From positions 36,015 through 100,014 of the forward strand of contig JBDRDJ010000031.1 in assembly GCA_043820815.1 (NCBI GenBank): a DNA stretch of 64,000 bases, written 5' to 3'. The notes below the pieces were generated by a model. It was given only the letters and a program-made list of their open reading frames with translations, was not told the origin of the DNA and did not search any database. Numbering within the stretch: the stretch's first letter is position 1; every line of letters starts with the position of its first letter. The stretch is from Candidatus Omnitrophota bacterium (lineage in GTDB: Bacteria; Omnitrophota; Gorgyraeia; Duberdicusellales; 4484-171). This document shows positions 1 to 59,670 of this stretch, in pieces. A program made the position numbers and the translations under genes.

Positions 1-293
1 AGGGCTCCTCCTAAACAAAATACTCCAATTATAAAAAATAATACAAATCCTAAAGAAAAAGGTAAACCCAAAAAACTACTCACATTCTTTAGAAAGCCTA
101 TAGCCAGCCCTAAAAAACCTATGCTTGAATCAATCATTTGCATTTCTTGATTAAAGATATAGTTTAACAGCGGCACAATCAGCATTATCTTTACTGCTTC
201 AACAAAAGCAACAGCTGACATTACAAAAACAATTAAGGAAAAATCTTTTTTCCTTTCATTCCAAATTTCTCTTAAATACCTAAAAAATGTCAT
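1..293 (-). CDS. 5' portion (97 codons) of a membrane protein gene that runs off the window. The N-terminus resembles the start of the TMD of an MsbA/PglK-type ABC exporter.
   Basis: Own translation from ATG 293-291: MTFFRYLREIWNERKKDFSLIVFVMSAVAFVEAVKIMLIVPLLNYIFNQEM... There is an ATGA overlap with the stop of the upstream radical SAM gene, and the sequence forms hydrophobic helices. It is absent from the ORF track because it has no stop in the window. Confidence 0.55.
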   Translation of the reverse strand, partial: MTFFRYLREIWNERKKDFSLIVFVMSAVAFVEAVKIMLIVPLLNYIFNQEMQMIDSSIGFLGLAIGFLKNVSSFLGLPFSLGFVLFFIIGVFCLGGA

Positions 294-4587: not shown

Positions 4588-4597
4588 TGTAAACCTC

Positions 4598-8219: not shown

Positions 8220-8238
8220 ATATTGAGTATATTCTCTT

Positions 8239-13814: not shown

Positions 13815-13842
13815 GTTAAATATAAACCAATATCTGCATTCT

Positions 13843-13890
13843 CATTGCAAATATTAGATAATATATGCGTTGGCAATGCAAATATTATAT
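13843..13890 (-). promoter_or_regulatory. Two 17-bp direct repeats (15/17 identical) with 31-bp periodicity in an 80-bp intergenic gap
   Basis: Minus strand reads ATATAATATTTGCATTG (13890-13874) and ATCTAATATTTGCAATG (13859-13843). They lie between the rfbG stop and the next start. Only weak sigma70-like hexamers are present. Confidence 0.4.
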
Positions 13891-13894
13891 ATGG

Positions 13895-14896
13895 TTATAT
13901 TTTTACCGTCTGTATGCTGGATTTTGCATACCATTGAAACGTTTTCCTAACCCCTTCTTCCAGCGAATGTTGTGGCTTCCATCCCAACACAGACCTTGCT
14001 TTCTTAGAGCAAAGGTATTGTTTTTTTATCTCATGGTTCGCTTTATTTAATATTAAGGGTTTGGGAACCTTATTTCCGCTCACTCTTACAATCTTGTTAA
14101 AAAACCCTAAAACAGTATAGGGTTTTTCGTCGCTTAGGTTAAATGCCTCGCCAAAAAGATTCAGCTTCTTTGCTTTCTCGGCTATAAGCAGATAGCCATT
14201 TACAATATCTTCAACGTAAACATAATCCCTTATAAACTTTCCGTCACTTCTTATGGTAAAGCGCTTTTTCTTCAGGATGCTCACCACGGCATCAGGGATT
14301 AACCTTGAGAAATTTAAATCGCCGCCTCCGTAAATATTTCCGCATCTGGTCACGCACACAGGAAGCTGATACGTATTATAATAGGTAAAAGCTAAGAGGT
14401 CTGTGCAGCTTTTCGAAACATCATATGGATGATTTCCTTTTAAGGGTGCCTCTTCAGTATAAGGGAGCTTTTTATGCGGCCCGTATGCCTTATCGCTCGA
14501 TGCAATAATCACAGATTCGATAAACTTACTCTTCCTTGCCGCCTCAAGAACATTCCATGTGCCTTTGATATTAGATTCAAAAGCTAAAAGGGGACTTCGA
14601 TTGGCATTTCCAACAATTGCCTCAGCCGCTAAGTGAAACACAACTTGAGGCTTATATTTAGCAAATACCCGTTTGATTAAAGATAAATCACAAATATCGC
14701 CTTTTATACCGGTTATTGAACTGCGTACGCCTCCTAAAATCGAATCCTTACGCCCTTTAACCTTATCAACACCTACAACCTTGGCACCCTTCTCAACGAG
14801 CGCCTTTGCCAGCCATGAGCCGAGGAATCCTTCGTGGCCGGTGATTAGGATACGCTTGTGATTCCAGAACCTGCTTTTTCGGTGTTCGGGTTTCAT
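13895..14896 (-). CDS. rfbG: CDP-glucose 4,6-dehydratase
   Basis: 333 aa. FWNHKRILITGHEGFLGSWLAKAL is the typical RfbG N-terminus, and the gene lies directly downstream of rfbF. Confidence 0.8.
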   Translation of the reverse strand: MKPEHRKSRFWNHKRILITGHEGFLGSWLAKALVEKGAKVVGVDKVKGRKDSILGGVRSSITGIKGDICDLSLIKRVFAKYKPQVVFHLAAEAIVGNANRSPLLAFESNIKGTWNVLEAARKSKFIESVIIASSDKAYGPHKKLPYTEEAPLKGNHPYDVSKSCTDLLAFTYYNTYQLPVCVTRCGNIYGGGDLNFSRLIPDAVVSILKKKRFTIRSDGKFIRDYVYVEDIVNGYLLIAEKAKKLNLFGEAFNLSDEKPYTVLGFFNKIVRVSGNKVPKPLILNKANHEIKKQYLCSKKARSVLGWKPQHSLEEGVRKTFQWYAKSSIQTVKI

Positions 14897-14908
14897 TTTC
14901 TTGTTGTT

Positions 14909-14928
14909 GGTCGCGACCGACCCCTACA
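14909..14928 (-). repeat. REP-like element copy 2 (short variant)
   Basis: Minus strand reads TGTAGGGGTCGGTCGCGACC, immediately after the rfbF stop codon. It contains the 10-bp palindrome GGTCGCGACC. Confidence 0.65.
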
Positions 14929-15723
14929 TTACCATATTTTCCAAGGGGCGTTGCCTTTTGCCCAGAGGTCATTCAACAAATCCAGTTCGCGCTGGGTGTC
15001 CATGCATTGCCAGAAACCTTCGTGTTTGAAAACCGAAAGTTCGCCGTCTGACGCAAGCTTCTCAAGAGGCTCTGATTCTAAAGAGCAATCTTTGAAATCT
15101 GTAAGGTAGTTAAAGATGCCCTTGCTAAAAACGAAAAACCCTCCGTTTATTGAGCCTTTGGTTGTGCGGGATTTCTCATTAAACGAGATTACCTTATCAC
15201 CTTTGGCAATAAGCTCGCCAAACCGAGACGAAGGATGAACTCCCGTTACGCTTCCTATTCTTTTTTGCAGTTTATGAAACTCGAGCAGATTATTTATATT
15301 AATATCGGAGGCGCCGTCGCCGTAGGTAACCATGAAATTGTCTTCCTTAATATAGCGTTCTATTTTCTTAATCCTGGCTCCAGTTTGGGTATTTTCGCCT
15401 GTATCAACGAGCGTAACTTTCCAGCCATCCTCGGAATGGTTGGAATGATATTCTATTTTATTCTTTTTACCCAAATGAAGGGTAAAATCATTGTTCATTG
15501 CCTCATAATTTAGGAAATATTCTTTGATTCTTTCGCCTTTGTAACCCAAACAAAGAATAAAATCCTTAAATCCGTAATGAGCATAAATTTTCATTATATG
15601 CCAGAGCACCGGCCTGCCGCCAATTTCAACCATTGGTTTTGGTTTAAATTCTGTTTCTCCCCTTAAACGCGTGCCTCTACCGCCGCATAGAATTACAACC
15701 TTAAAATTGTTTGTTTTCATCAT
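14929..15723 (-). CDS. rfbF: Glucose-1-phosphate cytidylyltransferase
   Basis: 264 aa. VVILCGGRGTRLRGETEFKPKPMVEIGGRPVLWHIMKIYAHYGFKDFILCLGYKGE is a near-textbook RfbF sequence. Confidence 0.9.
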   Translation of the reverse strand: MMKTNNFKVVILCGGRGTRLRGETEFKPKPMVEIGGRPVLWHIMKIYAHYGFKDFILCLGYKGERIKEYFLNYEAMNNDFTLHLGKKNKIEYHSNHSEDGWKVTLVDTGENTQTGARIKKIERYIKEDNFMVTYGDGASDININNLLEFHKLQKRIGSVTGVHPSSRFGELIAKGDKVISFNEKSRTTKGSINGGFFVFSKGIFNYLTDFKDCSLESEPLEKLASDGELSVFKHEGFWQCMDTQRELDLLNDLWAKGNAPWKIW

Positions 15724-17717
15724 TACATTGCCCTCGCTAAGTTTTCGTAGTACCTATCACTTTTTTCATACAAAGATAAATACCGGCTTAACAATTCAAA
15801 ATCTGGTTTTGTATTGCAGCCGCCGTTTAAAACAATCTGCGACAATACATCATAAAGTTGTTTATGGCCATTGACATATGTAACCTGACTATCACCTACA
15901 CCTGAAAGAGGACACATATCAACTGTGCTATAAAGATATGGCACAATTACCGGAACCTCATTGTAAAGAGCATCAAAAACACACGATGACTCCTTAACTA
16001 CTATTGCCATTGAGCTATCTATAAACTCTGATAAAGGCACATCGCTAATTTCAAATACATCTTTATTTAAATACAACCCTATTGCTTCAACATCGCTTTT
16101 AACTGGGCAACAAGGATGACCCTTTAAAATGACTTTTAAGCCTAAATTATTATCATTTAAAGCATCATGGAGCATGCTTATTATTTCGCGGTTTTCTGAA
16201 GGTATGATGGATAGGGTTACAAGAATTTGCTTTCTTTTCGCTTTATCCCTTAATGCGCTTCGATAATTTAGAAGGCGCTGCATGCGAAAACCGCCTAAGA
16301 CAAACAATTCGTCATTTCTCCATCCACTCTTTAAAAACATGTTTCTTGTAATATCTCCAACGCACCCTAAGGAACTTGGCTTAGGCATGCTATTTATAAA
16401 ATCGTAATTATTCATATCTTGAGGATGATTAAAGTAATTAAGCAAAAGAAGGGGAACAATCGTATGTTGGATGCCGATTGATTTTATATCTTTTCTTCTT
16501 CTTGCGGCAATATTTAAGGCTTTTTCCCAAACATGCATCTCAGAGAAATAAATAATGCTTGAGCCTTCGGGCATTTGCGATATAAGATTTGTAAATGTGC
16601 GGTAGAATAACAGGCCTTGCATAAGAACTTTGCCTGAGAACGAAGAGATAAAATCTCTTTTAAAAAGAGGCCATAAATTTAAATAGTCACCATCTCCTTG
16701 CGAAAAACTAAAAAGGCTTTTGTATTTAAAATAATTCATCAAACACTTAAAAGAAATAATAAAATATGTAAACGCCGCTTTAACAAAATCCTTAGAGTTT
16801 AAAAAAGATTCAAGAGTAAAGAAACGCTCTCCTATATCTTTAATTCTTTGGGCAGTTTTTAAAGCATTACGCCAAGAAGAAGAATATATCGCTGTATACA
16901 TGGCGACCCAGGCATGAGGAAGCTTATGTGAATTATTAATTGCCTCCTGCAGAACGCCATAAGCTTTATTTACGAATTTACCGCGCCTTAGGGATTCGCG
17001 GTCAATAAAAGGAAACATTGTTATTAAAATCATATTGGTATCGCTTAAACTTTTTAAATCCCTCTTTTTAAAATAAAAAGACGCCTGTAAAACATGGCTC
17101 ATTTTCTTAATAAAAAAATTAAAAGCCCTTAAATGTTCCTTTAAAAAAATACATGATACAGAAATAAAACTTACAAAATATCTCATTATGCTTCGTAAAG
17201 ATACTCCTTGGGAGCTTTTGTTTTCCATCAAAGATTCTTTTAATATGCCAGGAGAAGAAAACCATACATTGTCACATTTAAGGTCTTTTTTTAGCCTCGC
17301 AATTGTAAGGGCTCTGCAAAAATCACCGAATGTATCGGTTTTTCCGGGGCTCTTCTCGGAAATTAAAGAGAACCACCATAAAGAAAAATCGGAAAATGGG
17401 TGTTTAAAATAATTTTTAAGGTTTTTCTTGCCTACCACCTCGTCATTGCCTGCTTTGTGAATGAATTCGATAAACACATCCTTAGAATCAAAAGCGCACT
17501 CATTAAATAAAGTGAGAAAGTCTACAGTTTCACAACTTACCTTCAAGCTTTCAAGCCTCTCTTTTACCTCTTTACTCACCTTAGCCGCCATATAACTAAT
17601 CGGGCAGATATAAACAAAAGAAGGCTCAGCCTTGGCTATATTTTTTAAAATTTCGCTTGCCTCATCGCGGTTGGTTAAAATTAATAAAATCCTCATACTA
17701 TTCCTATACACGTTCAA
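15723..17717 (-). CDS. Orphan 664-aa protein. The C-terminal part is GT-B-like, with an HP...SS motif pattern suggestive of a CMP-sugar transferase.
   Basis: I recognise no family by eye in the N-terminal ~400 aa. The C-terminal part reads KVILKGHPCCP...(about 40 aa)...VVKESSCVFDALYNEVPVIVPY. The CDS itself is solid; the function call is weak. Confidence 0.4.
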   Translation of the reverse strand: MNVYRNSMRILLILTNRDEASEILKNIAKAEPSFVYICPISYMAAKVSKEVKERLESLKVSCETVDFLTLFNECAFDSKDVFIEFIHKAGNDEVVGKKNLKNYFKHPFSDFSLWWFSLISEKSPGKTDTFGDFCRALTIARLKKDLKCDNVWFSSPGILKESLMENKSSQGVSLRSIMRYFVSFISVSCIFLKEHLRAFNFFIKKMSHVLQASFYFKKRDLKSLSDTNMILITMFPFIDRESLRRGKFVNKAYGVLQEAINNSHKLPHAWVAMYTAIYSSSWRNALKTAQRIKDIGERFFTLESFLNSKDFVKAAFTYFIISFKCLMNYFKYKSLFSFSQGDGDYLNLWPLFKRDFISSFSGKVLMQGLLFYRTFTNLISQMPEGSSIIYFSEMHVWEKALNIAARRRKDIKSIGIQHTIVPLLLLNYFNHPQDMNNYDFINSMPKPSSLGCVGDITRNMFLKSGWRNDELFVLGGFRMQRLLNYRSALRDKAKRKQILVTLSIIPSENREIISMLHDALNDNNLGLKVILKGHPCCPVKSDVEAIGLYLNKDVFEISDVPLSEFIDSSMAIVVKESSCVFDALYNEVPVIVPYLYSTVDMCPLSGVGDSQVTYVNGHKQLYDVLSQIVLNGGCNTKPDFELLSRYLSLYEKSDRYYENLARAM

Positions 17718-18606
17718 ATTCTTCCTTGCTAATATTTCTTGCCCTTTCCTGATATAGAATATTTAGCATATCGAGTATGCCTTGGCCCAAATCAACATAA
17801 CTGGAATCAATAACCCTTTTAGCTAATTTGGGGCGGAAATTATACGGTGTTATCTCATAATGGCCATCGTATGGCTCATCGATAAACTCTAAATCAATTT
17901 TATTATTGAGCATCTCTTTTATCATAATAAGCAAATCTTTAATACGCATTGGCTGCTGCCCGGTTATCATAACATACTGATTTTTAAATTTATCATCGAG
18001 AATCTTAACGCTAAGACGCGCTGCGTCATAAACATGGATATACTCTCTTATTTCATTTCCATCGCCCCGCCGGGTTATTTTATTATTGTTAAGCGCTTCT
18101 TCTAAAATACGGGCGATCCAGTTAGATTTATCAGCCCTTACACCATAGAGAGATCCATAACGTAAAATTGAAAAGTCTAAACCGTATTGTTTGTGAAAAC
18201 ACTCAATTATGAGCTCACATGCCTGCTTGCTTACGCGGTAAAAAGAACCGGCATCGCTATAAACATACACGGTGCTTGCGAAAATATAGCGTTTCACTTT
18301 ATTTAATCTGCAAGCTTCAAGAATATTTGTGTTTCCAACAATATTGGTTGATATTGTTTCTTTTGGTTTATGATAAGCGACATCGATATCTGTTATACCT
18401 GCGAAGTTGTATGCCGCATCCGCCCCTTTTAAAGCAAAAGAGACGGCATCTTGATCTAATATATCCCCTATTATCATTTCCTGGTCCTTTCTCAAATAAC
18501 GAGATTTATTTATGTCAAAAATCGAGACTTCGTATTTTTCTTCAGATAGATAATCAGCCACATGGCTTCCTAAGAAACCACTTCCTCCAAAAACTACTAC
18601 CTTCAT
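17704..18606 (-). CDS. Extended SDR, NDP-sugar epimerase/dehydratase family
   Basis: 300 aa with MKVVVFGGSGFLGSHV and YRVSKQACE (YxxxK). Confidence 0.8.
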   Translation of the reverse strand: MKVVVFGGSGFLGSHVADYLSEEKYEVSIFDINKSRYLRKDQEMIIGDILDQDAVSFALKGADAAYNFAGITDIDVAYHKPKETISTNIVGNTNILEACRLNKVKRYIFASTVYVYSDAGSFYRVSKQACELIIECFHKQYGLDFSILRYGSLYGVRADKSNWIARILEEALNNNKITRRGDGNEIREYIHVYDAARLSVKILDDKFKNQYVMITGQQPMRIKDLLIMIKEMLNNKIDLEFIDEPYDGHYEITPYNFRPKLAKRVIDSSYVDLGQGILDMLNILYQERARNISKEEFERV

Positions 18607-18622
18607 AAAACTCTCCTTTATT

Positions 18623-18636
18623 AATAACCGGTTATT
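18623..18636. promoter_or_regulatory. Perfect 14-bp palindrome AATAACCGGTTATT in the intergenic leader
   Basis: Direct reading. It lies 17-30 nt upstream of the SDR start codon (18606), just upstream of its AAGGAG RBS. Confidence 0.35.
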
Positions 18637-18673
18637 TTATTTATAAACTTCACATAATATTTGAAAACAAAAA

Positions 18674-19510
18674 TTAGCTACTTTTTTTTGGTTCTAATTC
18701 AAAAAAGTTAAAATATGATCCATGATTATTTTTATACTTACCCAAAGAGCTAAGATAATTTATTGGAAAATTCTTTGTGCATTTAAAAGAGGTGTAACTT
18801 ACCATATTTATAAAATCACTTGTTGATAATTCAAATATGTGGTAATCACAATCACGGTCAACTTCGCCTACGCCCCATCCGCCTTCATGTTCAGGAAGAC
18901 ATATAAGGCTATCCCAATACCTTTTATTGTATACTTTGGTTGCTCTTTGATAAGGCACAGAAATAAATATCTTTTTCTTTGCTACCCTGATAAGCTCTTT
19001 CAACCCCGCAAGAGGTGACTCAAGATGTTCCAGACATTGGAAAGCTAAAACATAATCGTAGGAGTTATCATCAAAGGGTAAATTATAAATGTTTGCGCGA
19101 TAAACATTAATACCTTTATCTTTAATACGGGCAACCGAATGAGGATTTATATTTACAGAATCCCCTCTTCTTTCCATGGCTTTTAGAAGCAGGCCGGATG
19201 AGTCCCCGGCATTCAGAACACGTATTGAATTATCAAACATCTCAGGGTAATTATGTTTAAAGTACTCATATATCCTGAAATAGCGTATTTGGTTGATAAA
19301 AAGATCGGGATGAAATATATTATTGCGCATGCCTTTATCGCCATAATGCTCACTAACTTCACTTTCAGGAAAAAGCTTGCCTATCTGAGATTCATCGGCA
19401 ATCAACCGCTTTAACTTTTCATAGTATTTTGTTTTTGGATACGTTTGAAGTTTCCGCTTAAAACCTTTTAAAAAGTTTTTCGCGCTGAATATTTTATCTT
19501 TCTTATCCAT
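18674..19510 (-). CDS. Class I SAM-dependent methyltransferase
   Basis: 278 aa with VLNAGDSSGLL (motif I-like) and YDYVLAFQCLEHLESP (Methyltransf_11-like). Confidence 0.7.
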   Translation of the reverse strand: MDKKDKIFSAKNFLKGFKRKLQTYPKTKYYEKLKRLIADESQIGKLFPESEVSEHYGDKGMRNNIFHPDLFINQIRYFRIYEYFKHNYPEMFDNSIRVLNAGDSSGLLLKAMERRGDSVNINPHSVARIKDKGINVYRANIYNLPFDDNSYDYVLAFQCLEHLESPLAGLKELIRVAKKKIFISVPYQRATKVYNKRYWDSLICLPEHEGGWGVGEVDRDCDYHIFELSTSDFINMVSYTSFKCTKNFPINYLSSLGKYKNNHGSYFNFFELEPKKSS

Positions 19511-19540
19511 AATTTAACTCCCCGTATTACAAAAGAAGTT

Positions 19541-21034
19541 TTAATTGAAATATTTATCCTGATATTCCCGGCTTAATGATTTAAAAATATCGTTGCCTTC
19601 TTTACTAAACTTCTCAGCCGCCCGTATCTCATCGAATCTACTCTCAGGAAATCTGCAGTAAAGAGGAAATACTCTTTGTAAACCCTTTAGCTCCTCTTTT
19701 GAAAGTACTGTATTTTTCATTAGACACCCATCAAGCGACTGCTTTGTTTTTGCCGATTTATCTAAATGGCCCTCTTGGATACAGTAATCATATAACTCTG
19801 TTCCTTTGTATGGAGTAAACATAAAACAATTAATTGTGCGGGGATTAATTTTTCGGTTAATGAAAATTGTATCAAAGATGTCCTTCCGGGTTTCCTTAGG
19901 AAATCCAATAATATTATTTACCGTATAGGCAATTCCGTGGCGTTCAACGGCGCACAAGGCATTGACTATCCTCTCATTACTATGGTTTCTTAAGAGAACC
20001 TTTCTTCTTAAATCCTCATTTCCTGACTCGATACCAAACTGCATACTGGCACACCCCATGGCTTTAAGAAGGGAGAGTTTACCGCCTGTAACATTTTCTA
20101 CCCTGCTTTGGCACCAGAATGGCAGCCCGATGCGGCTGCGGTAGGTATCTGCGAACTTTACAAATTCTTTTTCAGGAAAAGAAAGAAAGCTTTCCGCGTT
20201 AAAATAAATATAATCGACCTTAAACTGGCTTGTATAACATTCTATTTCTTCAATAACTCTCTGGTAGTCTTTTCTCCTGTAATAATTGCTGTAACCCTCT
20301 TTTTGGTATAATTTGCGCAACGCCGGCGCCCCGCAATAGGTACATTGAAAAGGACAGCCCCTTTCAACTTCTACATGAAGCATAGTATAATTCTTTCCGT
20401 ACATAGGCCTTAAAAGGCGTTTCTTCTCCCAAATTGAGAAATCCAAGATTGGATTTTTGTTAATATCAACAAGAGGCCTCATTGAATTTTTATAAACTTG
20501 GACGTTATCTTTAACCCATATATTTTTTATGTTTTTTATATCGTCGTTGGATTTAAGCTTTGAACATAATTGGGCCATGGCACCCTCGCCCTCGCCAACG
20601 CAAATAATATCGATATCTTCATGCTTTAACATCTCATCCGGGTATAGTGTTACATGGACCCCTCCGGCTACAACGGGTATATTAAAATCTGAAATTCCTT
20701 TAAGAAGTTTTAGGCCCAAATCAACGGTATCTTCCACAAATGTTACCCCTATTAAATCAGGCTTATAAACATTTACAACTTGCCTTAAATCGTCCACAAT
20801 ATCATTCTCTTTGTAATGAATTCCTGCTTCGGATAAGTCAAAAGGTTTAATTTGAAGCAGTTCAACTCTTCGCTCTTCAAAACTTTTATCTTCTGTTTTG
20901 TAAAATGTGGTGTCGAACAAACGCGTATCGATACCTTTCTCCTTTAAAACTCCCGCCAGCTGAGTGAGGCCCAAAGGAATAAGGGTTGCCATCATTGTGT
21001 TAGGATAGATAAAGAGAACTTTAAATTTACTCAC
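19541..21034 (-). CDS. Cobalamin-binding-domain (class B) radical SAM enzyme
   Basis: 497 aa with MSKFKVLFIYPN..., ICVGEGEGA and ERGCPFQCTYC. It is a paralog of 1113-2519. Confidence 0.85.
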   Translation of the reverse strand: MSKFKVLFIYPNTMMATLIPLGLTQLAGVLKEKGIDTRLFDTTFYKTEDKSFEERRVELLQIKPFDLSEAGIHYKENDIVDDLRQVVNVYKPDLIGVTFVEDTVDLGLKLLKGISDFNIPVVAGGVHVTLYPDEMLKHEDIDIICVGEGEGAMAQLCSKLKSNDDIKNIKNIWVKDNVQVYKNSMRPLVDINKNPILDFSIWEKKRLLRPMYGKNYTMLHVEVERGCPFQCTYCGAPALRKLYQKEGYSNYYRRKDYQRVIEEIECYTSQFKVDYIYFNAESFLSFPEKEFVKFADTYRSRIGLPFWCQSRVENVTGGKLSLLKAMGCASMQFGIESGNEDLRRKVLLRNHSNERIVNALCAVERHGIAYTVNNIIGFPKETRKDIFDTIFINRKINPRTINCFMFTPYKGTELYDYCIQEGHLDKSAKTKQSLDGCLMKNTVLSKEELKGLQRVFPLYCRFPESRFDEIRAAEKFSKEGNDIFKSLSREYQDKYFN

Positions 21035-21736
21035 TTATACTTTCTTTGTAATTAAGTTTTCCCTGTAATAATCTTTAAATTTTTCAATTTTATCCCAAAC
21101 CTTTTTATCAACCATATCTTTTATAACTTCTCGCGGAAAATCCCACCATTTTACTTTTAGCAAGAAATCAATATCATCTTTCTCAAAGCGATAACGCACA
21201 AGGCGCTGTTTATTTCCAACAACAATTGAATAAGGCTCAACATCTTTAGTTATAACTGACCCTGCCCCGACAATCGCCCCATCGCCTATTGTTACACCCT
21301 TTAGAATAACCGCATTTGCCCCAATCCAAACATCATTGCCGATTGAAACGCGCAGTTCGTCTTTTTCATAACTGCCGAATCCTTTAACAAATTCCCCGCA
21401 GGCCTCTGATAAATAGAACGAATGGGTAGATACCCATCTGTTATGCTCCCAAAGACCAATAAATACACCCGGCCCTATGGAATTAAACTTTCCTATATCA
21501 GATGCATTGATAATCGAAAAACTGCTGACAATACTATAATCTCCTAAAGTGCTCGATTTAAACTCAGTATTTGGTTTCAACCTGCTGTAATTCCCAAGGG
21601 TGCTGTTTTTAACCTCGCAGTCACAACAAACTACAGCTGTACTTTCAAAAATATTATTGTATTTTTTATCTTTGAATTTATCTTTAAAATCTTCGAACTT
21701 CATTATGCCCTCGCTTTTTTTAACCGCCGACTGCAC
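21035..21736 (-). CDS. Hexapeptide-repeat acetyltransferase (XAT/CatB-like)
   Basis: 233 aa with VWIGANAVILKGVTIGDGAIVGAGSVITKDVEPYSIVVGN and a C-terminal WWDF segment typical of the XAT class. The start could instead be the internal Met at 21703. Confidence 0.8.
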   Translation of the reverse strand: MQSAVKKSEGIMKFEDFKDKFKDKKYNNIFESTAVVCCDCEVKNSTLGNYSRLKPNTEFKSSTLGDYSIVSSFSIINASDIGKFNSIGPGVFIGLWEHNRWVSTHSFYLSEACGEFVKGFGSYEKDELRVSIGNDVWIGANAVILKGVTIGDGAIVGAGSVITKDVEPYSIVVGNKQRLVRYRFEKDDIDFLLKVKWWDFPREVIKDMVDKKVWDKIEKFKDYYRENLITKKV

Positions 21737-22808
21737 ACACTTTCTTCCGCTCTTTTAAACAAGTAGCAAACTCTTCCATTGCTTGGGTCGGTCCAAGTGT
21801 TAAACGAACACAGTTTTTAATGGGCTCACCAAAAGAGCCTCTTACATATATATTTCTCTTCTTTAAATACTCGATTAATTCGCTTGTTTCTTGTTCGCTA
21901 TTAAGAAAAATGAGCATCCCGTTAGTAAAACTCCCGCCCGAATATTTAAACCCCATCTTTGAAAGCTCTTCTTTTATATATTTTCTGCCTTGATTTAAGC
22001 TGTCTACATAATCATTGGTTATTTCAGGGTGCTTTAATATATACTCACCAATAGCCATAGAAACAGCGTTTGACTCAACCAAAGAACGGGTTTTAGATAA
22101 ATATTCTATGTTTTCTTCATTGCTTACCATATACCCAAGCCTGATTCCGGCAAGGCCCAAAGCTTTTGAGAAAGTCTGGAAAACAACTAAATTATCGAAC
22201 TCTTCAATAAGAGGAACTGCGCTTCTTGCTCCAAAAAAAGCATACGCTTCATCAACAACAAATACGGCTCCGGATTCCAAACACTTTTTTGCCAAACGTT
22301 TTAATTCTTCAATATTAAATACACTCTCAATTGGCAAATTGGGGTTTGGTAAGAATACGACTTTCGTATTGCCATCGATTGAACTATAAAGCTCATTAAA
22401 ACTTAATGTTAAATCATCCCTAAATTTTACCTCGCATAAATTTGCCTGATAAATATCGCTGTAAACTTTATACATTGGGTATGTCGGAGAAATAGTAACA
22501 ACTTTATCGCCGGGTGAAACCAGAGTTTCAAATACAACCCTTATCCCCTCGGTTATGCCGTTGGTTACATAGAACTTATCCTTGGTAATATTAAAGCTTT
22601 CACTCAATGCAGAATAGAAACTTTCCGGGTCAGGATAGGCATTGAATGCGTGTTTTGGTATAGAATTTAAGATATCATCGATAATATCTTTAGAAAACGG
22701 GATTACCCTCTCATTTCTATCGAGGCAAATGCCATTATCAAAATCTCTTCCCATAGATGTTCTAAGGCGCATCAATTTAACCAAATGAGGCTTATAATTA
22801 TTTTTCAT
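21720..22808 (-). CDS. Class I/II PLP aminotransferase of the histidinol-phosphate aminotransferase (HisC) type
   Basis: 362 aa. The motif FSKALGLAGIRLGY contains the PLP lysine, and an NPNLP-type segment is present. Confidence 0.8.
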   Translation of the reverse strand: MKNNYKPHLVKLMRLRTSMGRDFDNGICLDRNERVIPFSKDIIDDILNSIPKHAFNAYPDPESFYSALSESFNITKDKFYVTNGITEGIRVVFETLVSPGDKVVTISPTYPMYKVYSDIYQANLCEVKFRDDLTLSFNELYSSIDGNTKVVFLPNPNLPIESVFNIEELKRLAKKCLESGAVFVVDEAYAFFGARSAVPLIEEFDNLVVFQTFSKALGLAGIRLGYMVSNEENIEYLSKTRSLVESNAVSMAIGEYILKHPEITNDYVDSLNQGRKYIKEELSKMGFKYSGGSFTNGMLIFLNSEQETSELIEYLKKRNIYVRGSFGEPIKNCVRLTLGPTQAMEEFATCLKERKKVCAVGG

Positions 22809-22834
22809 TTATCTACCATCTCCTTTTTATCCAT

Positions 22835-23836
22835 TTACTTATCAAACGGCCTTGCGAATTCTTCACTTAAAGGCTCAGCGCAGCATTCTTTATTGTTTAA
22901 GCAATTAAAACATGTGAGCCCATCTAAATCAGCGTTTATATGACGGTTTCTAAGCTCAAGATACTTAGCATTATGCCAGGCTTCTTTAACCGAAACTTTA
23001 TTTAAATCGGCAACTACTAAAAAATTTTGATAATCAACAACGCATGCGGAAAGATACCCTTGAGGAGTTACTGTGCACCTAAAAAAGATATCCGGACACC
23101 TGCCGGTATACTGATTATTTTTTAAACTGCCCAATAAATTACGGCTATCGATATGTTCGGTCATGTTGTTTTCCAATATATTTCCACCCTGATTGCTGCA
23201 GCCTCGATAATCCATTTCGTCTACATAGGGCTTAAGTATCTCGTAAAGAGTTGGCCACTGCCCCTGAGTGAGACTGGAAGGAACCATACTTACATAAATA
23301 CCGTAATCTAAGGCGCTTTCTTCTCTATAATTGTAAAACCATTTTACGTTTTCAATTACCTTATCAAAAGCATCAACGCCATGGACTTTTTTATAAGTTT
23401 CTCTGTTCCCGGCATTTATTGAAAACTTAATACTGTTTAGGCCGGCGTCTAAGACCGGCTTTGCGCGATTGCGATTGGCAATAATGCCATTGGAAGATAT
23501 AAATATATACTCATAACCTATTAAACGCGCCTTTTCAACAAAATCTGCGAGATCATCACGCAGGAAAGGCTCTCCCGTTGCATAAAATGCGACTTCTCTG
23601 GTTCCGTTATCATAGAAATCTTTAAGAAGTTTAAAGCCTAATTCCTTATCAAGATAATCTCTTTGTGTAACCTTATGGTTACTGCAAAAAAAACATTTGC
23701 TGTTACAGGCATTATTTAAGTCAAAAAATACTTCTCTGGGAAACGGCGGATAAGGATTATTTAAATCGACAGCCATTCTTCTCGATTTCTTAACCGCTAA
23801 GCTTTCTTTCTTTGAAGTATGTGCTTTATTTACCAA
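22835..23836 (-). CDS. Radical SAM enzyme with a SPASM/twitch-like C-terminal Cys-rich domain
   Basis: 333 aa with NNACNSKCFFC (CxxxCxxC). C-terminal cysteines: CPDIFFRC, ACVVD and CFNCLNNKECC. Confidence 0.8.
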   Translation of the reverse strand: MVNKAHTSKKESLAVKKSRRMAVDLNNPYPPFPREVFFDLNNACNSKCFFCSNHKVTQRDYLDKELGFKLLKDFYDNGTREVAFYATGEPFLRDDLADFVEKARLIGYEYIFISSNGIIANRNRAKPVLDAGLNSIKFSINAGNRETYKKVHGVDAFDKVIENVKWFYNYREESALDYGIYVSMVPSSLTQGQWPTLYEILKPYVDEMDYRGCSNQGGNILENNMTEHIDSRNLLGSLKNNQYTGRCPDIFFRCTVTPQGYLSACVVDYQNFLVVADLNKVSVKEAWHNAKYLELRNRHINADLDGLTCFNCLNNKECCAEPLSEEFARPFDK

Positions 23837-24755
23837 AATTAAATCCTTTCAGCAGATTATCAACCGCCATAAACTCCATCGCAACCCTTGCTTCTTTTGC
23901 ATATGAACCAATGTGGCTTGATAAAATAACGTTATCAAGATCCTTTAAATGGCCCTTATATGGCTCATTTTCGAATACATCTAAAGCGGCACCCCCGATT
24001 TTGTTTTCGGATAGATAATCATAAAGAGCTTTCTCATCCACAATGCCGCCGCGTGAAGTATTGATCAAAAGCGCGCAAGGCTTAATTAACTCTAAATTGT
24101 CCCTGTTTATTAAATTTTTGGTATTTTCATTTATTGGCAAATGGATTGATATAATATCGCTATTCTTTAACAAACTGTTTAAATCAACATACTGTATTGA
24201 AAACTTATCGGCAAAATTATTATCATGGTTTATGTCGTATGCTAGATACTTCAAATAAAAACTGCCGGTTAGCTCAACTACTTTTTTTGCAATATTTCCC
24301 AAACCAACAAATCCGATAGTTTTGCCTTTAAGAAGATTGCCCATCGGCTTATTCCAGATGCCGCATCTTATATTGCGGTCAACCAAGGGTATCTTTCTAA
24401 GAAGTGAAAAAATATGGGCTAAAGTCAGTTCGGCAACCGCATCAACAACAGGATCAAGAGTTTTATAAACCTGTATCCCTTTTGCTTTTACCGCAACCAT
24501 GTCTATGTTGTCAACACCAATACCGCAACGGGATATAACTTTTAGCGACTTTGCCCTATTAATAACATCTTTTGTAATGGGTTCTGTGCCGGCAATAACG
24601 CCGGCAATATCAGGGCCATAATAATCAATGGTCTCTTTAGCTGTCATTTTTCTGCCAAATGGATTCTGAACAATTTCAAGCCCTTTTTCTTTTAAAGGGT
24701 CCAAAACTGAACTTTCAAATTTTCCAAACGTGCTTGTTGTAATTAAAACTTTCAT
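23826..24755 (-). CDS. D-isomer-specific 2-hydroxyacid dehydrogenase (PGDH/GyaR-like)
   Basis: 309 aa with GKTIGFVGLGNIAKKV (NAD site), SRGGIVDE and SSHIGS (catalytic His region). Confidence 0.85.
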   Translation of the reverse strand: MKVLITTSTFGKFESSVLDPLKEKGLEIVQNPFGRKMTAKETIDYYGPDIAGVIAGTEPITKDVINRAKSLKVISRCGIGVDNIDMVAVKAKGIQVYKTLDPVVDAVAELTLAHIFSLLRKIPLVDRNIRCGIWNKPMGNLLKGKTIGFVGLGNIAKKVVELTGSFYLKYLAYDINHDNNFADKFSIQYVDLNSLLKNSDIISIHLPINENTKNLINRDNLELIKPCALLINTSRGGIVDEKALYDYLSENKIGGAALDVFENEPYKGHLKDLDNVILSSHIGSYAKEARVAMEFMAVDNLLKGFNFGK

Positions 24756-24756: not shown

Positions 24757-25524
24757 TCATTTAACTCCCGGTTTATACTTTTTAAATAATCCGTCGTTTA
24801 AAAGAGCTTTTTCTACTCTTTTTCTATCATCTTCATTATCTACCGCCATGGTTTTTATTTCTGTTTCAACGAGCTTAATTTTATAGCCGTACTCTAACAC
24901 TCTTACCATATCAACACTCTCAACACATTCAGTAGGGCTTGGTTTCAACTCAACGAATTTAAGCAGGAAATCTCTTCTAAAAGGGAGTATACAAACCTGT
25001 CTATATCTGTCAAAGCTTCCGGGATGCTTTTTAGCTGAAGGTATAGGCTCCCGGGAAAAATAAAGAGCATAATTTGATAAGTCTTTTACTACTTTTATAA
25101 AATTAGGGCTGTTAAAATCTCTATCATTATCTATCTTAGAAATAACATTGGTACAAACAAGGCTCTTGTCTTTAAAAAAGGGCTTAACGCCATCTTCAAT
25201 CATCTGAGGATAAATTAACGGCTCATCGCCCTGTATATTTACAACTACATCTGCATCGCTTTTAATATTTATACACGCCTCAGCAACTCTGTCTGAACAA
25301 GTCTTATGGGTATCCTTTGTCATGACGGCTAAACCGCCAAAACGCTCAACTTCATCTTTTATTTCGCGATCACATGTTGCAACATACAATTCATCCAAGA
25401 TCTTGCACATAGCCGAACGCCTGTAAACATGCTCAACCATCGTCATACCGCACATTTTACATAGCGGTTTACCGGGAAATCTTGTTGATGCCATGCGTGC
25501 CGGTATTATCCCAATAACTTTCAT
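24757..25524 (-). CDS. kdsB: KdsB-family 3-deoxy-2-ulosonic acid cytidylyltransferase
   Basis: 255 aa with IIPARMASTRFPGKPL and NIQGDEPL, the KdsB signatures. No kdsA is present in the window. Confidence 0.75.
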   Translation of the reverse strand: MKVIGIIPARMASTRFPGKPLCKMCGMTMVEHVYRRSAMCKILDELYVATCDREIKDEVERFGGLAVMTKDTHKTCSDRVAEACINIKSDADVVVNIQGDEPLIYPQMIEDGVKPFFKDKSLVCTNVISKIDNDRDFNSPNFIKVVKDLSNYALYFSREPIPSAKKHPGSFDRYRQVCILPFRRDFLLKFVELKPSPTECVESVDMVRVLEYGYKIKLVETEIKTMAVDNEDDRKRVEKALLNDGLFKKYKPGVK

Positions 25525-25529: not shown

Positions 25530-26324
25530 CTACACCTTAACCTTAACTTTGCCCTTTACCATGTTATTAATTCTTTCGACTGAAGAAGAAGTATAATCCT
25601 GTAAAATTATCGCATCCGTACTGTAAGCAATAAAGTTGAATCCTTGATTAATTTTCTCCTCAACTTCTTGATAGCGGGGATAGACAATGTGCACACCCAA
25701 TGATTTGTTGTGTTTCTTTGCTGCAGCTTTTATTTTTGAAACAGCTTCAACAACCAAAGGATTATCAAAACCACCTGCCACCCCTAAAGATGCTGATATA
25801 TCATAAGGGCCAATTAAAATTCCATCTATATCTGTTTCTAATATACTGTCAATGTTTGAAAGTGCATCTTTATGTTCAATTTGCGCTATAACAATCATCT
25901 CTTTATTAGCCCTATCAAAATATTCTTTAAAATTAGAACCGTACCCCTGAGAACGGGCAATACCGGTTCCTCTTTTGCCTATAGGCGGATACATAGAAGA
26001 ACAAAGAGCTTCTTTTGCTTGATCTGCAGTGTTAACATTGGGAACAATTATACCGGCTGCTCCGGCATCTAAAACTCTCTTTATTTCTACATTATCATTG
26101 GATGAGAGCCTAACTAAAGGAATAATCCCTTTTGACTCTATTATCTGAAATAATACCTGTGTGGTTGATATATCAATTGCACTGTGCTCTAAATCAACTA
26201 CCAGCCAATCAAAACCTGCCTGAGCCATGATTTCAGCTGTAACAGGATGGCCAATTTGAAGCCAGCTTCCTATTGTAGTTTTACAATTTATTAACTTTTT
26301 CTTAAAAACTTCTCTTGCATTCAT
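25530..26324 (-). CDS. HpcH/HpaI-family class II (pyruvate-specific) aldolase
   Basis: 264 aa with GSWLQIGHPVTAEIMAQAGFDWLVVDLEHS and PPIGKRG, typical of HpcH/GarL/YfaU. Confidence 0.85.
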   Translation of the reverse strand: MNAREVFKKKLINCKTTIGSWLQIGHPVTAEIMAQAGFDWLVVDLEHSAIDISTTQVLFQIIESKGIIPLVRLSSNDNVEIKRVLDAGAAGIIVPNVNTADQAKEALCSSMYPPIGKRGTGIARSQGYGSNFKEYFDRANKEMIVIAQIEHKDALSNIDSILETDIDGILIGPYDISASLGVAGGFDNPLVVEAVSKIKAAAKKHNKSLGVHIVYPRYQEVEEKINQGFNFIAYSTDAIILQDYTSSSVERINNMVKGKVKVKV

Positions 26325-42197: not shown

Positions 42198-42208
42198 TTA
42201 CGTTACCG

Positions 42209-43630: not shown

Positions 43631-43640
43631 ATTAATCCTC

Positions 43641-59648: not shown

Positions 59649-59670
59649 AAAATAAAAATCTTATGATGCC

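Follow-up and report, generated by a model that had tools for sequence, protein, structure and literature searches.

In the biosynthesis of butirosin 2-deoxystreptamine, BtrN, a small radical SAM enzyme with a single four-cysteine auxiliary cluster, turns a secondary alcohol into a ketone, which the PLP aminotransferase BtrS (BtrR), of the DegT type, then converts to an amine. In the Kdo8N pathway of Shewanella, KdnB, a metal-dependent oxidase of the alcohol-dehydrogenase type, and KdnA, a sugar aminotransferase, act on Kdo, and the oxidised and transaminated octulosonic acid is used as a CMP-sugar. Methylation, oxidation and transamination at C6' of gentamicin involve GenK, GenQ and GenB1, which combine a class B radical SAM enzyme with the conversion of an alcohol to an amine on a sugar. 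Fom3, a B12-radical SAM enzyme that methylates CMP-hydroxyethylphosphonate, provides a class B precedent on a cytidylylated substrate. Finally, the canonical Kdo and nonulosonic acid pathways (KdsA/KdsC/KdsB and NeuB/NeuA) follow a logic of synthase, phosphatase and CMP-transferase.

The locus described here, from a Candidatus Omnitrophota MAG, shares elements with each of these systems, and we found no characterised counterpart. Its small radical SAM enzyme resembles BtrN best by both sequence profile and fold, but at about 19% identity; it is paired with a HisC-type (class I/II) rather than a DegT-type aminotransferase, and it presumably acts on an acidic sugar, CMP-linked or free, of a surface glycan rather than on the aminocyclitol of an antibiotic. 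The likeness to the Kdo8N pathway is one of logic only; a KdsB-type enzyme occurs in both settings. In a comparison made by family rather than by direct sequence, the Pfam and NCBIfam matches noted for the block include neither the KdnA nor the KdnB family, and neither protein was noticed among the listed solved-structure matches. Oxidation here would be oxygen-independent, and a pyruvate aldolase instead of KdsA would provide the skeleton of the acid. The B12-radical SAM enzyme lacks close homology to GenK and Fom3; its closest solved relative is AprD4, a dehydratase (E 2e-16). Where the canonical pathways use a PEP-dependent synthase, 12 of 19 related loci have an HpcH/HpaI class II pyruvate aldolase, and the module further includes a 2-hydroxyacid dehydrogenase, a GalE-like SDR, a B12-radical SAM enzyme and methyltransferases.

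Gene content of the block and its flanks

We analysed a stretch of 64,000 nucleotides (the window). Six minus-strand open reading frames occupy 17704-23836 fully (Table 1), and Pfam matches in all six proteins exceed gathering thresholds, so that ORF coordinates and domains bear out the first-pass annotation, which had described six consecutive genes with tight boundaries. The radical SAM gene overlaps the upstream 2-hydroxyacid dehydrogenase gene by 11 nt and is followed after 26 nt by the HisC-like gene, which as called overlaps the XAT gene by 17 nt. The XAT gene directly abuts the B12-radical SAM gene; gaps of 30 nt and 67 nt precede the methyltransferase and SDR genes, respectively, and the SDR gene overlaps the downstream gene for the 664-aa protein by 14 nt. 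In a pattern scan, none of the intergenic gaps of the block held a promoter-like or terminator-like site, and counts were not above those of shuffled sequence. The six genes look co-transcribed, within an Omnitrophota surface-glycan locus. They had been placed immediately downstream of the aldolase/KdsB cassette; they do adjoin it, but the dehydrogenase gene, the sixth of the cassette, separates kdsB from the radical SAM gene.

Table 1 Genes of the six-gene block and the adjoining cassette in the window
Feature	Position	Strand	Length (aa)	Basis of assignment
Putative GT-B glycosyltransferase (cassette head)	27838-29898	-	686	weak Pfam Epimerase_2
CT3b, second CTP_transf_3 cytidylyltransferase	27021-27770	-	249	Pfam CTP_transf_3, E 1e-14
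HAD-IA phosphatase	26372-27043	-	223	Pfam HAD_2, Hydrolase
Class II HpcH/HpaI pyruvate aldolase	25530-26324	-	264	Pfam HpcH_HpaI
KdsB-type CMP-ulosonic-acid synthetase	24757-25524	-	255	two NCBIfam KdsB models
D-2-hydroxyacid dehydrogenase	23826-24755	-	309	Pfam 2-Hacid_dh, 2-Hacid_dh_C
BtrN-like radical SAM enzyme	22835-23836	-	333	Pfam Radical_SAM, SPASM
HisC-like class I/II PLP aminotransferase	21720-22808	-	362	Pfam Aminotran_1_2, E 1e-42
XAT-class hexapeptide acyltransferase	21035-21736	-	233 (as called)	Pfam Hexapep
B12-binding-domain radical SAM enzyme	19541-21034	-	497	Pfam B12-binding, Radical_SAM
Class I SAM methyltransferase	18674-19510	-	278	Pfam Methyltransf_11, MetW
GalE-like extended SDR	17704-18606	-	300	Pfam Epimerase, E 9e-43
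664-aa protein	15723-17717	-	664	NCBIfam TIGR04326, below cut-off

In the cassette, the KdsB-type protein passes the cut-offs of both NF009905 (283.7 bits, cut-off 255) and TIGR00466 kdsB (155.6 bits, cut-off 155.2). The aldolase, whose closest solved relatives are HpaI, GarL and YfaU (E 1e-42 to 1e-36), falls under the cut-off of every NCBIfam equivalog; we propose it as the builder of the keto-deoxy acid. The dehydrogenase is similar to phosphoglycerate dehydrogenase and glyoxylate reductase (NCBIfam PGDH, 242 bits, under cut-off). CT3b matches its Pfam model by the N-terminal half only and is distantly PseF-like, far under the NCBIfam PseF cut-off at 56 bits. The 686-aa protein gave weak NCBIfam matches to the BFO_1060 glycosyltransferase and TIGR04396 and has orthologs in loci L001 and L008. 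For the 664-aa protein a Pfam search gave no domain; it scores 200.8 bits against TIGR04326, 'O_ant_LIC13510 surface carbohydrate biosynthesis protein' (cut-off 250), and its positional equivalent in L104 weakly matches the C-terminal domain of GT28. The 664-aa protein is probably the transferase or polymerase using the product of the module.

Enzymes of the block

The small radical SAM enzyme has invariant cysteines at C44/C48/C51 and at C247/C265/C309/C312. The enzyme looks like a 'twitch' enzyme with one auxiliary cluster because only these four C-terminal cysteines are invariant; it had been labelled SPASM-type, a term that implies two clusters when taken in full. The earlier comparison with BtrN held: BtrN ranked first when the family profile was compared with solved structures (E 6e-23), with both domains aligned and the positions of its auxiliary-cluster cysteines matching the four C-terminal cysteines, and a Foldseek search with the AlphaFold2 model (pLDDT 90) returned BtrN 4m7t as best match (E 7.8e-14). 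By fold, BlsE, DesII and SuiB come close to BtrN in score, which together with the low identity to BtrN leaves dehydrogenase chemistry unassured. We propose that the enzyme may act as an alcohol-to-ketone dehydrogenase. A sister subfamily of twitch enzymes shares the four-cysteine pattern; there the next gene encodes either a HisC-like aminotransferase or a short-chain ketoreductase, the latter replacing the aminotransferase in L088 and L089. Both kinds of partner would take a carbonyl as substrate, which implies such an intermediate.

We propose that the HisC-like enzyme aminates the ketone that the radical SAM enzyme would form. K215, D186, Y189, N157, R223 and R335 are invariant across its 19 orthologs, and R323 is nearly so. 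It had been asked whether this gene is simply the housekeeping histidinol-phosphate aminotransferase; this identity is disfavoured, as the protein scores 221.6 bits against TIGR01141 hisC, under the equivalog cut-off of 276.55, and its gene lies beside the radical SAM gene, in glycan loci, in 19 of 19 cases.

For the XAT-class enzyme, the best NCBIfam matches (TIGR03308, Vat and CatB) are all under cut-off, and solved CatB and VatD align at E 1e-28. Since the L001 ortholog has 220 aa and the ORF finder takes as gene start the first start codon following a stop, translation more likely begins at an ATG 33 nt downstream of the called start, giving a protein of about 222 aa; the overlap with the HisC-like gene would then vanish. 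We infer N-acetylation by this enzyme from gene position only, and its relatives are mostly O-acetyltransferases. The acyltransferase slot varies among the 19 loci anchored on the radical SAM gene: XAT orthologs occur in L001 and L002 only, a GNAT gene directly follows the HisC-like gene in eight loci, and hexapeptide proteins just precede the radical SAM gene in two.

The remaining three enzymes would modify the sugar further. In the B12-radical SAM enzyme C227/C231/C234 are invariant, and the architecture is that of class B; it scores far under the cut-offs of NCBIfam PhpK and other class B families, and we propose that it may be a C-methylase, although AprD4, its closest solved relative, is a dehydratase. 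The methyltransferase has orthologs in L001 (61%) and L008 (55%), and other class I methyltransferases (MT_23, MT_11 and FkbM) lie between or beside the aldolase and kdsB genes in L129, L146, L153, L155 and L161. The SDR matches solved UDP-hexose 4-epimerases at E 1e-25 to 1e-18 and is fused to a HAD domain in L089.

Two units and the pathway that they may serve

We compared two sets of loci: 19 non-redundant loci anchored on the BtrN-like enzyme (at least 42% identity; Omnitrophota, Campylobacterales, Flavobacteriaceae, Brocadiaceae, Planctomycetales, Pelagibacteraceae, Rhodospirillales and others), and 50 independent loci of at least 9 kb anchored on the B12-radical SAM family, which has 1408 matches at E ≤ 1e-20. 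The gene set is widely conserved, and the block divides into two evolutionary units. The amination unit consists of the BtrN-like and HisC-like enzymes with a variable acyltransferase; the core unit consists of the B12-radical SAM enzyme and the SDR, which in most of the 50 loci keep company with the dehydrogenase, the HAD phosphatase and a cytidylyltransferase, and beside which class I methyltransferases recur. The two units were found apart in most genomes, so the six genes do not form a single indivisible unit.

In all 19 loci of the first set, the radical SAM gene is immediately followed by the HisC-like gene, the two often overlapping. A KdsB-type gene is found within 10 kb of this pair in 17 loci and a keto-deoxy-acid synthase nearby in 18: the HpcH aldolase in 12, an HMGL-like protein adjoining a cytidylyltransferase in three more, and NeuB in three of the other four (L003, L016 and L020). 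Relatives of the HAD phosphatase and of the dehydrogenase each occur in 10 of the 19. Among the 50 loci of the second set, the B12-radical SAM enzyme is most often accompanied by the SDR (45 loci, mostly at 51-63% identity), followed by the HAD phosphatase (39), the dehydrogenase (37), cytidylyltransferases of CT3b type (28, at 26-33% identity) or KdsB type (10), the aldolase (11) and NeuB (4); relatives of the 664-aa protein at 21-33% identity occur in 20. The B12-radical SAM gene lies directly against the aldolase-kdsB pair in L104, L146 and L166. All or most of aldolase, kdsB, B12-radical SAM, SDR, dehydrogenase and HAD genes are contiguous, with a large unknown protein, in these three loci and in L155 and L161; class I methyltransferase genes lie among them in L146, L155 and L161, as they do in the related loci L129 and L153. 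The window-type BtrN-like enzyme and an adjacent HisC-like gene are absent from these loci. A glycan locus of the cultured Methanolobus sp. ZRKC4 likewise combines dehydrogenase, SDR, aldolase, B12-radical SAM enzyme and cytidylyltransferase without the amination unit, and in L172 aldolase and cytidylyltransferase adjoin a protein like Maf/MptE, a family that includes transferases putting nonulosonic acids on flagellin. The tie between block and aldolase/KdsB cassette was thus upheld from both anchors, in several independent loci for the B12-radical SAM gene. The whole module is syntenic in L001/L002 at 44-76% protein identity, and this one further metagenomic lineage, in which the six genes stand together and in order, is the only other holder of the full set. 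The first-pass annotation would have been refuted had the six genes failed to co-occur beyond this genome, and they do co-occur.

We put at about even the chance of one overall reading, in which the block is the tailoring half of an operon-like module of about 12 kb, from 27770 to 15723 on the minus strand, and this module makes a CMP-activated modified 3-deoxy-2-ulosonic acid of Kdo or sialic-acid type for a surface glycan. The analysis shows which genes and families are present, the two units of co-occurring genes and the ways in which these combine; the chemistry of each step, the sequence of events (tailoring could precede CMP activation or follow it) and the kind of sugar made are inferred. 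In the proposed pathway, the HAD phosphatase and dehydrogenase would supply or adjust the precursor, and the aldolase would join pyruvate to an aldehyde or aldose, yielding a 2-keto-3-deoxy acid and substituting for the PEP-dependent KdsA/NeuB reaction. The KdsB-type enzyme would form the CMP-sugar. C-methyl and O- or N-methyl groups would come from the B12-radical SAM enzyme and the methyltransferase, and the SDR would epimerise or reduce one position. In an add-on branch of the window genome, the BtrN-like enzyme would oxidise a hydroxyl group in an oxygen-independent way, the HisC-like enzyme would transaminate the resulting carbonyl and the XAT enzyme would acylate the new amine; the 664-aa and 686-aa proteins would transfer the sugar. 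Against this reading, within the DNA fetched most loci of the second set show neither aldolase nor NeuB, so the core unit may act on a product of another kind; this absence is weak evidence, as loci of this kind can be longer than 50 kb and many of the contigs are short. Also against it, the window carries four CTP_transf_3, two NeuB and four B12-radical SAM genes, and pairing enzyme with substrate by adjacency alone is uncertain.

The separation of the two units would also fit independent pathways whose adjacency reflects locus packing rather than a common substrate, which we consider unlikely. The radical SAM, HisC-like and XAT trio could then tailor another CMP-sugar, for example by C8 or C4 amination of a legionaminic- or pseudaminic-type acid encoded at 40500-48684, and the B12-radical SAM enzyme, methyltransferase and SDR could serve another product, such as an aldolase-derived acid or a CDP-6-deoxyhexose encoded at 12903-15723. 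NeuB lies within 10 kb of the pair in 7 of 19 loci and is the sole synthase seen in the three loci named above; glucose-1-phosphate cytidylyltransferase and 4,6-dehydratase genes come after the block in the window, L087, L088, L090 and L104; and the window carries four cytidylyltransferase and two NeuB genes. However, the pair is linked to KdsB-type genes much more often than to NeuA-type genes, gene order and spacing are kept over all 12 genes between the window and L001/L002, with frames overlapping or abutting, and in L087 a cytidylyltransferase gene lies between the radical SAM and aminotransferase genes, which argues that the trio shares one substrate.

The aldolase could instead make a 4-hydroxy-2-oxo acid, the HisC-like enzyme transaminating its C2 keto group to a gamma-hydroxy amino acid that is N-acetylated, methylated and attached to a sugar as an unusual acyl or amino-acid substituent, an option that the first-pass annotation had raised. 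HisC-family substrates are normally 2-oxo acids or keto-phosphates, the two C-terminal arginines (R335 and R323) are conserved, and HpcH aldolases yield 2-oxo acids. Yet this would leave unexplained the obligatory radical SAM partner, the ketoreductase in place of the aminotransferase and the KdsB-type partner, which is nearly universal and requires the 2-keto group to form a CMP-glycoside, and Pfam annotation of the block gave neither an amide or CoA ligase nor an ATP-grasp enzyme; we regard it as quite improbable.

A CMP-activated small molecule other than a sugar acid, such as a phosphonate or a glycerol- or serinol-type head group, would accord with the Fom3 precedent and with the best NCBIfam match of the XAT enzyme, a phosphonate-associated family. 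Radical SAM relatives at 35-42% identity have no HisC-like gene next to them and belong to phosphonate clusters (with PEP mutase and phosphonopyruvate decarboxylase) or to NeuB/NeuA clusters, which also speaks against the ulosonic-acid reading; about half lie between a cytidylyltransferase-PEP-mutase fusion and phosphonopyruvate decarboxylase. Enzymes of the 2-Hacid_dh and Aminotran_1_2 families are known branch points from phosphonopyruvate (PMC8942020). But tblastn found neither PEP mutase nor phosphonopyruvate decarboxylase in the window, no such annotation occurs in the BLAST-defined gene clusters of the 19 loci anchored on the radical SAM gene or is listed in four Pfam-annotated loci of the B12 set, and the cytidylyltransferases of the window are of the ulosonic-acid type (PF02348) rather than TagD or LicC type, making this a very remote prospect. 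If the ulosonic-acid reading is true, the module would build a methylated and aminated sugar like Kdo or sialic acid by means of oxygen-independent radical enzymes.

The six-gene block and its glycan locus

The interval 17704–23836 had been described in the first-pass annotation as a run of six tailoring genes, and six open reading frames fill it exactly, with the claimed domains all above their Pfam gathering thresholds. The sizeable open reading frames of the window, which derives from a Candidatus Omnitrophota contig, lie on the minus strand throughout. Within the block, the reading frames overlap or are spaced by 0–67 nt, and a pattern scan placed no promoter-like or terminator-like site in its intergenic gaps; the counts were not above those of shuffled sequences. 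The block is embedded in a locus for surface glycans, about 58 kb long, with four B12-radical SAM (class B) genes and at least two genes for small radical SAM proteins that have auxiliary-cluster domains; it also has four genes of the CTP_transf_3 family, two for NeuB and one for an HpcH aldolase. Housekeeping genes form the upstream, high-coordinate boundary of this locus.

Features of the block, its neighbours and other gene sets in the window (upstream and downstream follow the direction of transcription)
Feature	Positions	Strand	Length	Place	Family match or remark
BtrN-like radical SAM enzyme		-	333 aa	block	Pfam Radical_SAM and SPASM
HisC-like aminotransferase		-	362 aa	block	Pfam Aminotran_1_2
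XAT-class protein		-	233 aa	block	Pfam Hexapep
B12-radical SAM enzyme		-	497 aa	block	Pfam B12-binding and Radical_SAM
Methyltransferase		-	278 aa	block	Pfam Methyltransf_11
SDR		-	300 aa	block	Pfam Epimerase/SDR
U686, putative GT-B protein			686 aa	upstream	
CT3b, divergent CTP_transf_3 protein				upstream	
HAD phosphatase				upstream	
HpcH/HpaI aldolase				upstream	
KdsB-type cytidylyltransferase				upstream	passes NCBIfam KdsB cut-offs
D-2-hydroxyacid dehydrogenase				upstream	stop overlaps start of radical SAM gene
U664			664 aa	downstream, overlapping SDR gene	TIGR04326 'surface carbohydrate biosynthesis protein', 200.8 bits (cut-off 250)
Glucose-1-phosphate cytidylyltransferase				downstream	equivalog cut-off met
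CDP-glucose 4,6-dehydratase-like protein				downstream	
RmlD-like reductase				downstream	
GT2 glycosyltransferase				downstream	
Second small module	290–5934	-			similar arrangement in comparison locus L003
Methyltransferase	5302–5934	-		second small module	
PseF-like cytidylyltransferase	4598–5305	-		second small module	
Short NeuB	3709–4587	-		second small module	without SAF domain
DegT aminotransferase	2520–3833	-		second small module	
B12-radical SAM gene number 4	1113–2519	-		second small module	30% identical to that of the block
Radical SAM protein	290–1129	-	279 aa	second small module	SPASM domain
B12-binding radical SAM gene	33456–34910			same glycan locus	
B12-binding radical SAM gene	42209–43630			same glycan locus	
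Legionaminic/pseudaminic-type nonulosonic acid gene set	40500–48684				PseB/LegB-like dehydratase, DegT, PglD-like acetyltransferase, NeuC-like 2-epimerase, NeuB with SAF domain, PseF-like cytidylyltransferase; B12-radical SAM gene number 3 embedded
Housekeeping genes	58702–63768			locus boundary	lumazine-binding (riboflavin-synthase-like) gene, trpA, PALP-family gene (likely trpB), PRA isomerase gene, indole-3-glycerol-phosphate synthase gene

The KdsB-type cytidylyltransferase, encoded in the cassette immediately upstream, was the only protein of block or cassette to reach NCBIfam cut-offs (NF009905, 283.7 against 255; NF003952, 274.5 against 193; TIGR00466, 155.6 against 155.2). By these curated cut-offs it belongs to the KdsB family and is a putative CMP-Kdo synthetase. 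Elsewhere in the window, three pairs of open reading frames, within 2520–4587, 7290–8940 and 36492–39351, overlap by 125–176 nt if the first possible start is used; the overlapping frames start with TTG at 3833, 8390 and 37424, and the true starts probably lie further downstream.

Assignment of the tailoring enzymes

The first gene of the block encodes a radical SAM enzyme (Pfam Radical_SAM, 68 bits); its CxxxCxxC cysteines for the radical SAM [4Fe-4S] cluster (C44, C48 and C51) are shared by all 30 homologues aligned. In the C-terminal part of the same alignment the sole invariant cysteines are C247, C265, C309 and C312; C318 and C319 are variable, and a proline is conserved at position 322. 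The best solved protein for the homologue profile was BtrN (E = 6e-23), in an alignment that spans radical SAM core and C-terminal domain alike, and the four invariant C-terminal cysteines fall on BtrN cysteines in MSC, LPC and CKNC, which are reported as auxiliary-cluster ligands in the BtrN structure. An AlphaFold2 model (pLDDT 90) likewise returned BtrN (4m7t) at Foldseek rank 1 (E = 7.8e-14; TM-score 0.73 on the target), with BlsE, SuiB and DesII close behind. The enzyme had been labelled SPASM-type, and a Pfam SPASM match (28 bits) agrees with the name, but not with the two auxiliary clusters of a full SPASM enzyme: the seven-cysteine motif is absent and only four C-terminal cysteines are conserved. 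These four cysteines, together with the profile and fold matches to BtrN, argue for a one-cluster 'twitch' enzyme. Among characterised enzymes BtrN is the nearest; by oxidising a secondary alcohol it prepares the substrate for an aminotransferase. A two-electron oxidation that turns an alcohol into a carbonyl is a candidate reaction here too, supported indirectly by the partner genes. The gene downstream of the BtrN-like gene always encodes an aminotransferase among the close homologues sampled, while a sister twitch subfamily is followed by an aminotransferase in some loci and by a ketoreductase in others, as would be expected if the radical SAM enzyme made a carbonyl.

The aminotransferase scored 221.6 bits against TIGR01141 (hisC; cut-off 276.55), and all other HisC models fell far below their cut-offs. 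Its gene lies inside glycan loci, directly downstream of the BtrN-like gene and on the same strand, in all 19 comparison loci described below. On the score and the glycan gene contexts we rejected a housekeeping histidinol-phosphate aminotransferase, in line with the atypical role first proposed for this gene; no his genes were annotated among the window genes scanned. K215 (motif SKA), D186, Y189, N157 and R223 are invariant in 19 orthologues, as is R335, and R323 is nearly so. With the PLP lysine and cofactor residues present, the protein is assigned by sequence to the fold-type I, class I/II PLP aminotransferase family. The XAT-class protein, a putative O- or N-acyltransferase (Hexapep, 63.5 bits), matched the solved acetyltransferases CatB and VatD at E = 1e-28 over about 150 residues and fell far below the cut-offs of the Vat, CatB and TIGR03308 models.

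The B12-radical SAM enzyme has an N-terminal B12-binding domain (49.3 bits; cut-off 32.1) and a Radical_SAM core, with C227, C231 and C234 of its CxxxCxxC motif invariant. Its architecture places it among class B radical SAM enzymes, with methyl transfer to carbon as the putative reaction; its closest solved relative is AprD4, a dehydratase of similar architecture, and it reached the cut-off of no NCBIfam model (best TIGR04072, 111 bits against 360). The family is large, with 1408 matches at E ≤ 1e-20 and more than 100 clusters at ≥52% identity, and its hosts include Omnitrophota, Nitrospirae, Dehalococcoidia, Nealsonbacteria and Syntrophorhabdaceae. The enzymes encoded at 33456–34910 and 42209–43630 are 24–26% identical to each other and to that of the block.

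Two gene units in the comparison loci

We sampled the neighbourhoods of both radical SAM enzymes. For the BtrN-like enzyme, an alignment-based genome scan gave 80 loci and exact look-up another 6; open reading frames were called, compared with the window proteins and clustered, and 19 non-redundant loci encoded a radical SAM protein at least 42% identical to that of the window. They come from Omnitrophota, Campylobacterales, Flavobacteriaceae, Brocadiaceae, Planctomycetales, Pelagibacteraceae, Rhodospirillales, Kiloniella and a Bdellovibrio-like metagenome-assembled genome (MAG). For the B12-radical SAM enzyme, four look-ups and a metagenome scan yielded 50 loci of at least 9 kb.

Occurrence of partner genes in the two sets of comparison loci
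Partner	BtrN-like anchor (19 loci)	B12-radical SAM anchor (50 loci)
KdsB-type cytidylyltransferase	17 (within 10 kb)	10
CT3b-type cytidylyltransferase		28
HpcH aldolase	12	11
HAD phosphatase	10	39
2-hydroxyacid dehydrogenase	10	37
SDR	10	45 (300 aa, mostly 51–63% identity)
Second twitch radical SAM subfamily		25
HisC-like aminotransferase		24 (26–35% identity)
U664-like protein		20
Methyltransferase like that of the window		19
XAT		3

The proposed tie between the block and the aldolase/KdsB cassette held in the BtrN-anchored set, as the counts for the KdsB-type gene and the aldolase show. In three loci that lack the HpcH aldolase an HMGL-like protein is encoded beside the HisC-like and kdsB genes, and NeuB is present in three of the four loci with neither, so that a keto-deoxy-acid synthase is found nearby in 18 of 19. 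The acyltransferase and methyltransferase positions keep their function and not their family: a GNAT gene follows the HisC-like gene in eight loci, two loci have hexapeptide proteins ahead of the radical SAM gene, and MT_23 and FkbM stand in place of MT_11. All six block genes occur together and in the same order beyond this genome, as the reading of the first-pass annotation required, but only in L001 and L002, two JGI metagenome contigs with 44–76% protein identity across 16 syntenic genes.

More distant relatives of the BtrN-like enzyme (35–42% identity) lie, in about half of cases, beside a cytidylyltransferase–PEP-mutase fusion and phosphonopyruvate decarboxylase, and others adjoin a short NeuB and a NeuA-like gene; a cytidylyltransferase is the constant partner across the whole family. 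In the phosphonate-linked arrangement (L029–L070, for example L037, L042, L057 and L062) the relative sits between the fusion and the decarboxylase, often with a TagD-like cytidylyltransferase and a LicD-like gene and usually with no aminotransferase recognised nearby, in Clostridia, Bacteroidales, Synergistaceae, Selenomonadaceae and Gastranaerophilales. The arrangement suggests that phosphonate decoration of glycans involves a radical SAM step that is as yet uncharacterised. Such relatives in PEP-mutase clusters, and the XAT match to TIGR03308, raised the idea of a phosphonate pathway in the window, for which a cyanophage paper and a phosphonate inventory (PMC8942020) provide context on branch points. 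We rejected it, as tblastn with PEP mutase and phosphonopyruvate decarboxylase queries from related loci found no match in the window at E ≤ 1e-3.

The second twitch subfamily of the B12-anchored loci is 21–25% identical to the BtrN-like enzyme of the window and has an identical four-cysteine pattern; in L088 and L089 a short-chain ketoreductase gene follows it, replacing the aminotransferase. In five loci (L104, L146, L155, L161 and L166) all or most of the aldolase, kdsB, B12-radical SAM, SDR, dehydrogenase and HAD genes are contiguous with a gene for a large unknown protein, and neither a window-type BtrN-like enzyme nor a HisC-like gene adjoins this core set. Class I methyltransferase genes are interspersed in three of these loci (L146, L155 and L161), as they are in the related L129 and L153. 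The block is therefore not the single unit first described but two units joined, and the first-pass interpretation holds in part. The core unit comprises the B12-radical SAM enzyme, class I methyltransferase and SDR with the 2-hydroxyacid dehydrogenase, HAD phosphatase, cytidylyltransferase and a large transferase-like protein, to which the aldolase is often added; the add-on unit comprises the BtrN-like enzyme, HisC-like aminotransferase and acyltransferase.

In L104 the large protein matches the GT28 C-terminal domain weakly. A phmmer search for common ancestry among U664, U686 and protein clusters c14, c24, c25, c26, c31 and c35 found no cross-family similarity and so no large transferase shared by them; U664 matches TIGR04326, below its cut-off.

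In L089, from a Nealsonbacteria MAG of the candidate phyla radiation, the SDR and HAD phosphatase are fused in one 494-aa protein (2134–3618), which suggests consecutive steps on a phosphorylated substrate. In L172 the aldolase, cytidylyltransferase and cyclase genes adjoin that for a Maf/MptE-like protein. Variants of the module in L015, L022, L026 and L172 are extended by a GmhA-like SIS isomerase and an oxidoreductase of the Gfo/Idh/MocA type. The first three have an inositol-monophosphatase-family protein as well, in place of which L172 carries a DHQ-synthase-like protein, DUF386 and the Maf/MptE-like protein. The isomerase and phosphatase in these variants hint that the aldolase acceptor derives from a sugar phosphate.

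Nearly all near relatives come from MAGs, single-cell genomes or metagenomes, and the sole cultured carrier that we found, Methanolobus sp. ZRKC4 (L171; CP146983.1, 901428–920183), has the core set only. Its dehydrogenase, SDR (41% identity), aldolase (52%), B12-radical SAM (42%) and cytidylyltransferase genes lie together in a glycan locus, beside NeuB, DegT, ATP-grasp and CDP/dTDP-sugar genes. A further pyruvate aldolase in a nonulosonic-acid-like locus of a cultured organism is Cthe_2649 of Clostridium thermocellum, an HpcH/HpaI aldolase among the co-regulated genes Cthe_2641–2650, which include NeuC-like, NeuD, nucleotidyltransferase, DegT, ATP-grasp and CapD genes (PMC3880215).

A candidate route to a modified CMP-ulosonic acid

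The most economical reading of the module is that it makes a CMP-activated ulosonic acid from pyruvate by means of the aldolase, which is then methylated and, in this genome, also aminated and acylated. The B12-radical SAM enzyme would first C-methylate a carbinol carbon; the BtrN-like enzyme would next oxidise the resulting or a neighbouring secondary alcohol, and transamination and acylation would follow. The 2-hydroxyacid dehydrogenase, HAD phosphatase and SDR may either provide a precursor or take part in the tailoring. We infer this order, which would be chemically coherent, by analogy: it parallels the GenK/GenQ/GenB1 and BtrN/BtrS pathways. The general logic resembles that of the Kdo and nonulosonic acid pathways, and the style of amination that of BtrN/BtrS.

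Aldolase or NeuB synthase genes were not seen in most B12-anchored loci within the DNA fetched, so the core unit could serve another CMP-sugar that is encoded further away. The two halves of the block might even act on different CMP-sugars, their adjacency reflecting the packing of the locus; the window does encode several cytidylyltransferases and synthases, but we think this arrangement unlikely. Under the single-product reading, we rate the module as an uncharacterised, widely conserved and radical-SAM-rich route to a modified CMP-ulosonic-type sugar. Each of its proteins belongs to a known superfamily; our literature search found no paper describing these genes together.

To our knowledge, all known routes to sialic, legionaminic and pseudaminic acids and Kdo use PEP-dependent synthases, and the amino groups of these acids are set before condensation or through oxygen-dependent or NAD-dependent oxidation. 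The module instead sets a pyruvate aldolase and KdsB-type cytidylyltransferase beside a HisC-type aminotransferase and two radical SAM enzymes, one with a B12-binding domain and the other BtrN-like. It is conserved among poorly known lineages, in which metagenomes contain hundreds of such loci. Its carriers are mainly uncultured and largely anaerobic (Omnitrophota, Nitrospirae, Dehalococcoidia, candidate-phyla-radiation and anammox bacteria), and it also occurs in SAR11 and methanogenic archaea. We tentatively advance the possibility that the module specifies an unrecognised family of surface sugars. These would be C-methylated ulosonic acids, some of them also bearing amino and acyl groups; a class II aldolase would make them from pyruvate, in place of the PEP-dependent KdsA or NeuB, and oxygen-independent radical SAM chemistry would do all of the tailoring. 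On this view the BtrN-like enzyme and its HisC-type partner would serve CMP-sugars in general as an anaerobic 'hydroxyl to amine' device.

Acidic eight-carbon and nine-carbon sugars govern surface recognition by hosts, phages and predators. If the proposal is true, it would extend the known chemistry of sugars and bring two radical SAM classes new substrates. A testable function would also be at hand for the many glycan-locus genes of uncultured bacteria and archaea that carry the very common annotation 'radical SAM protein', and the core set in cultured Methanolobus sp. ZRKC4 makes a chemical test feasible and identification of the product possible.
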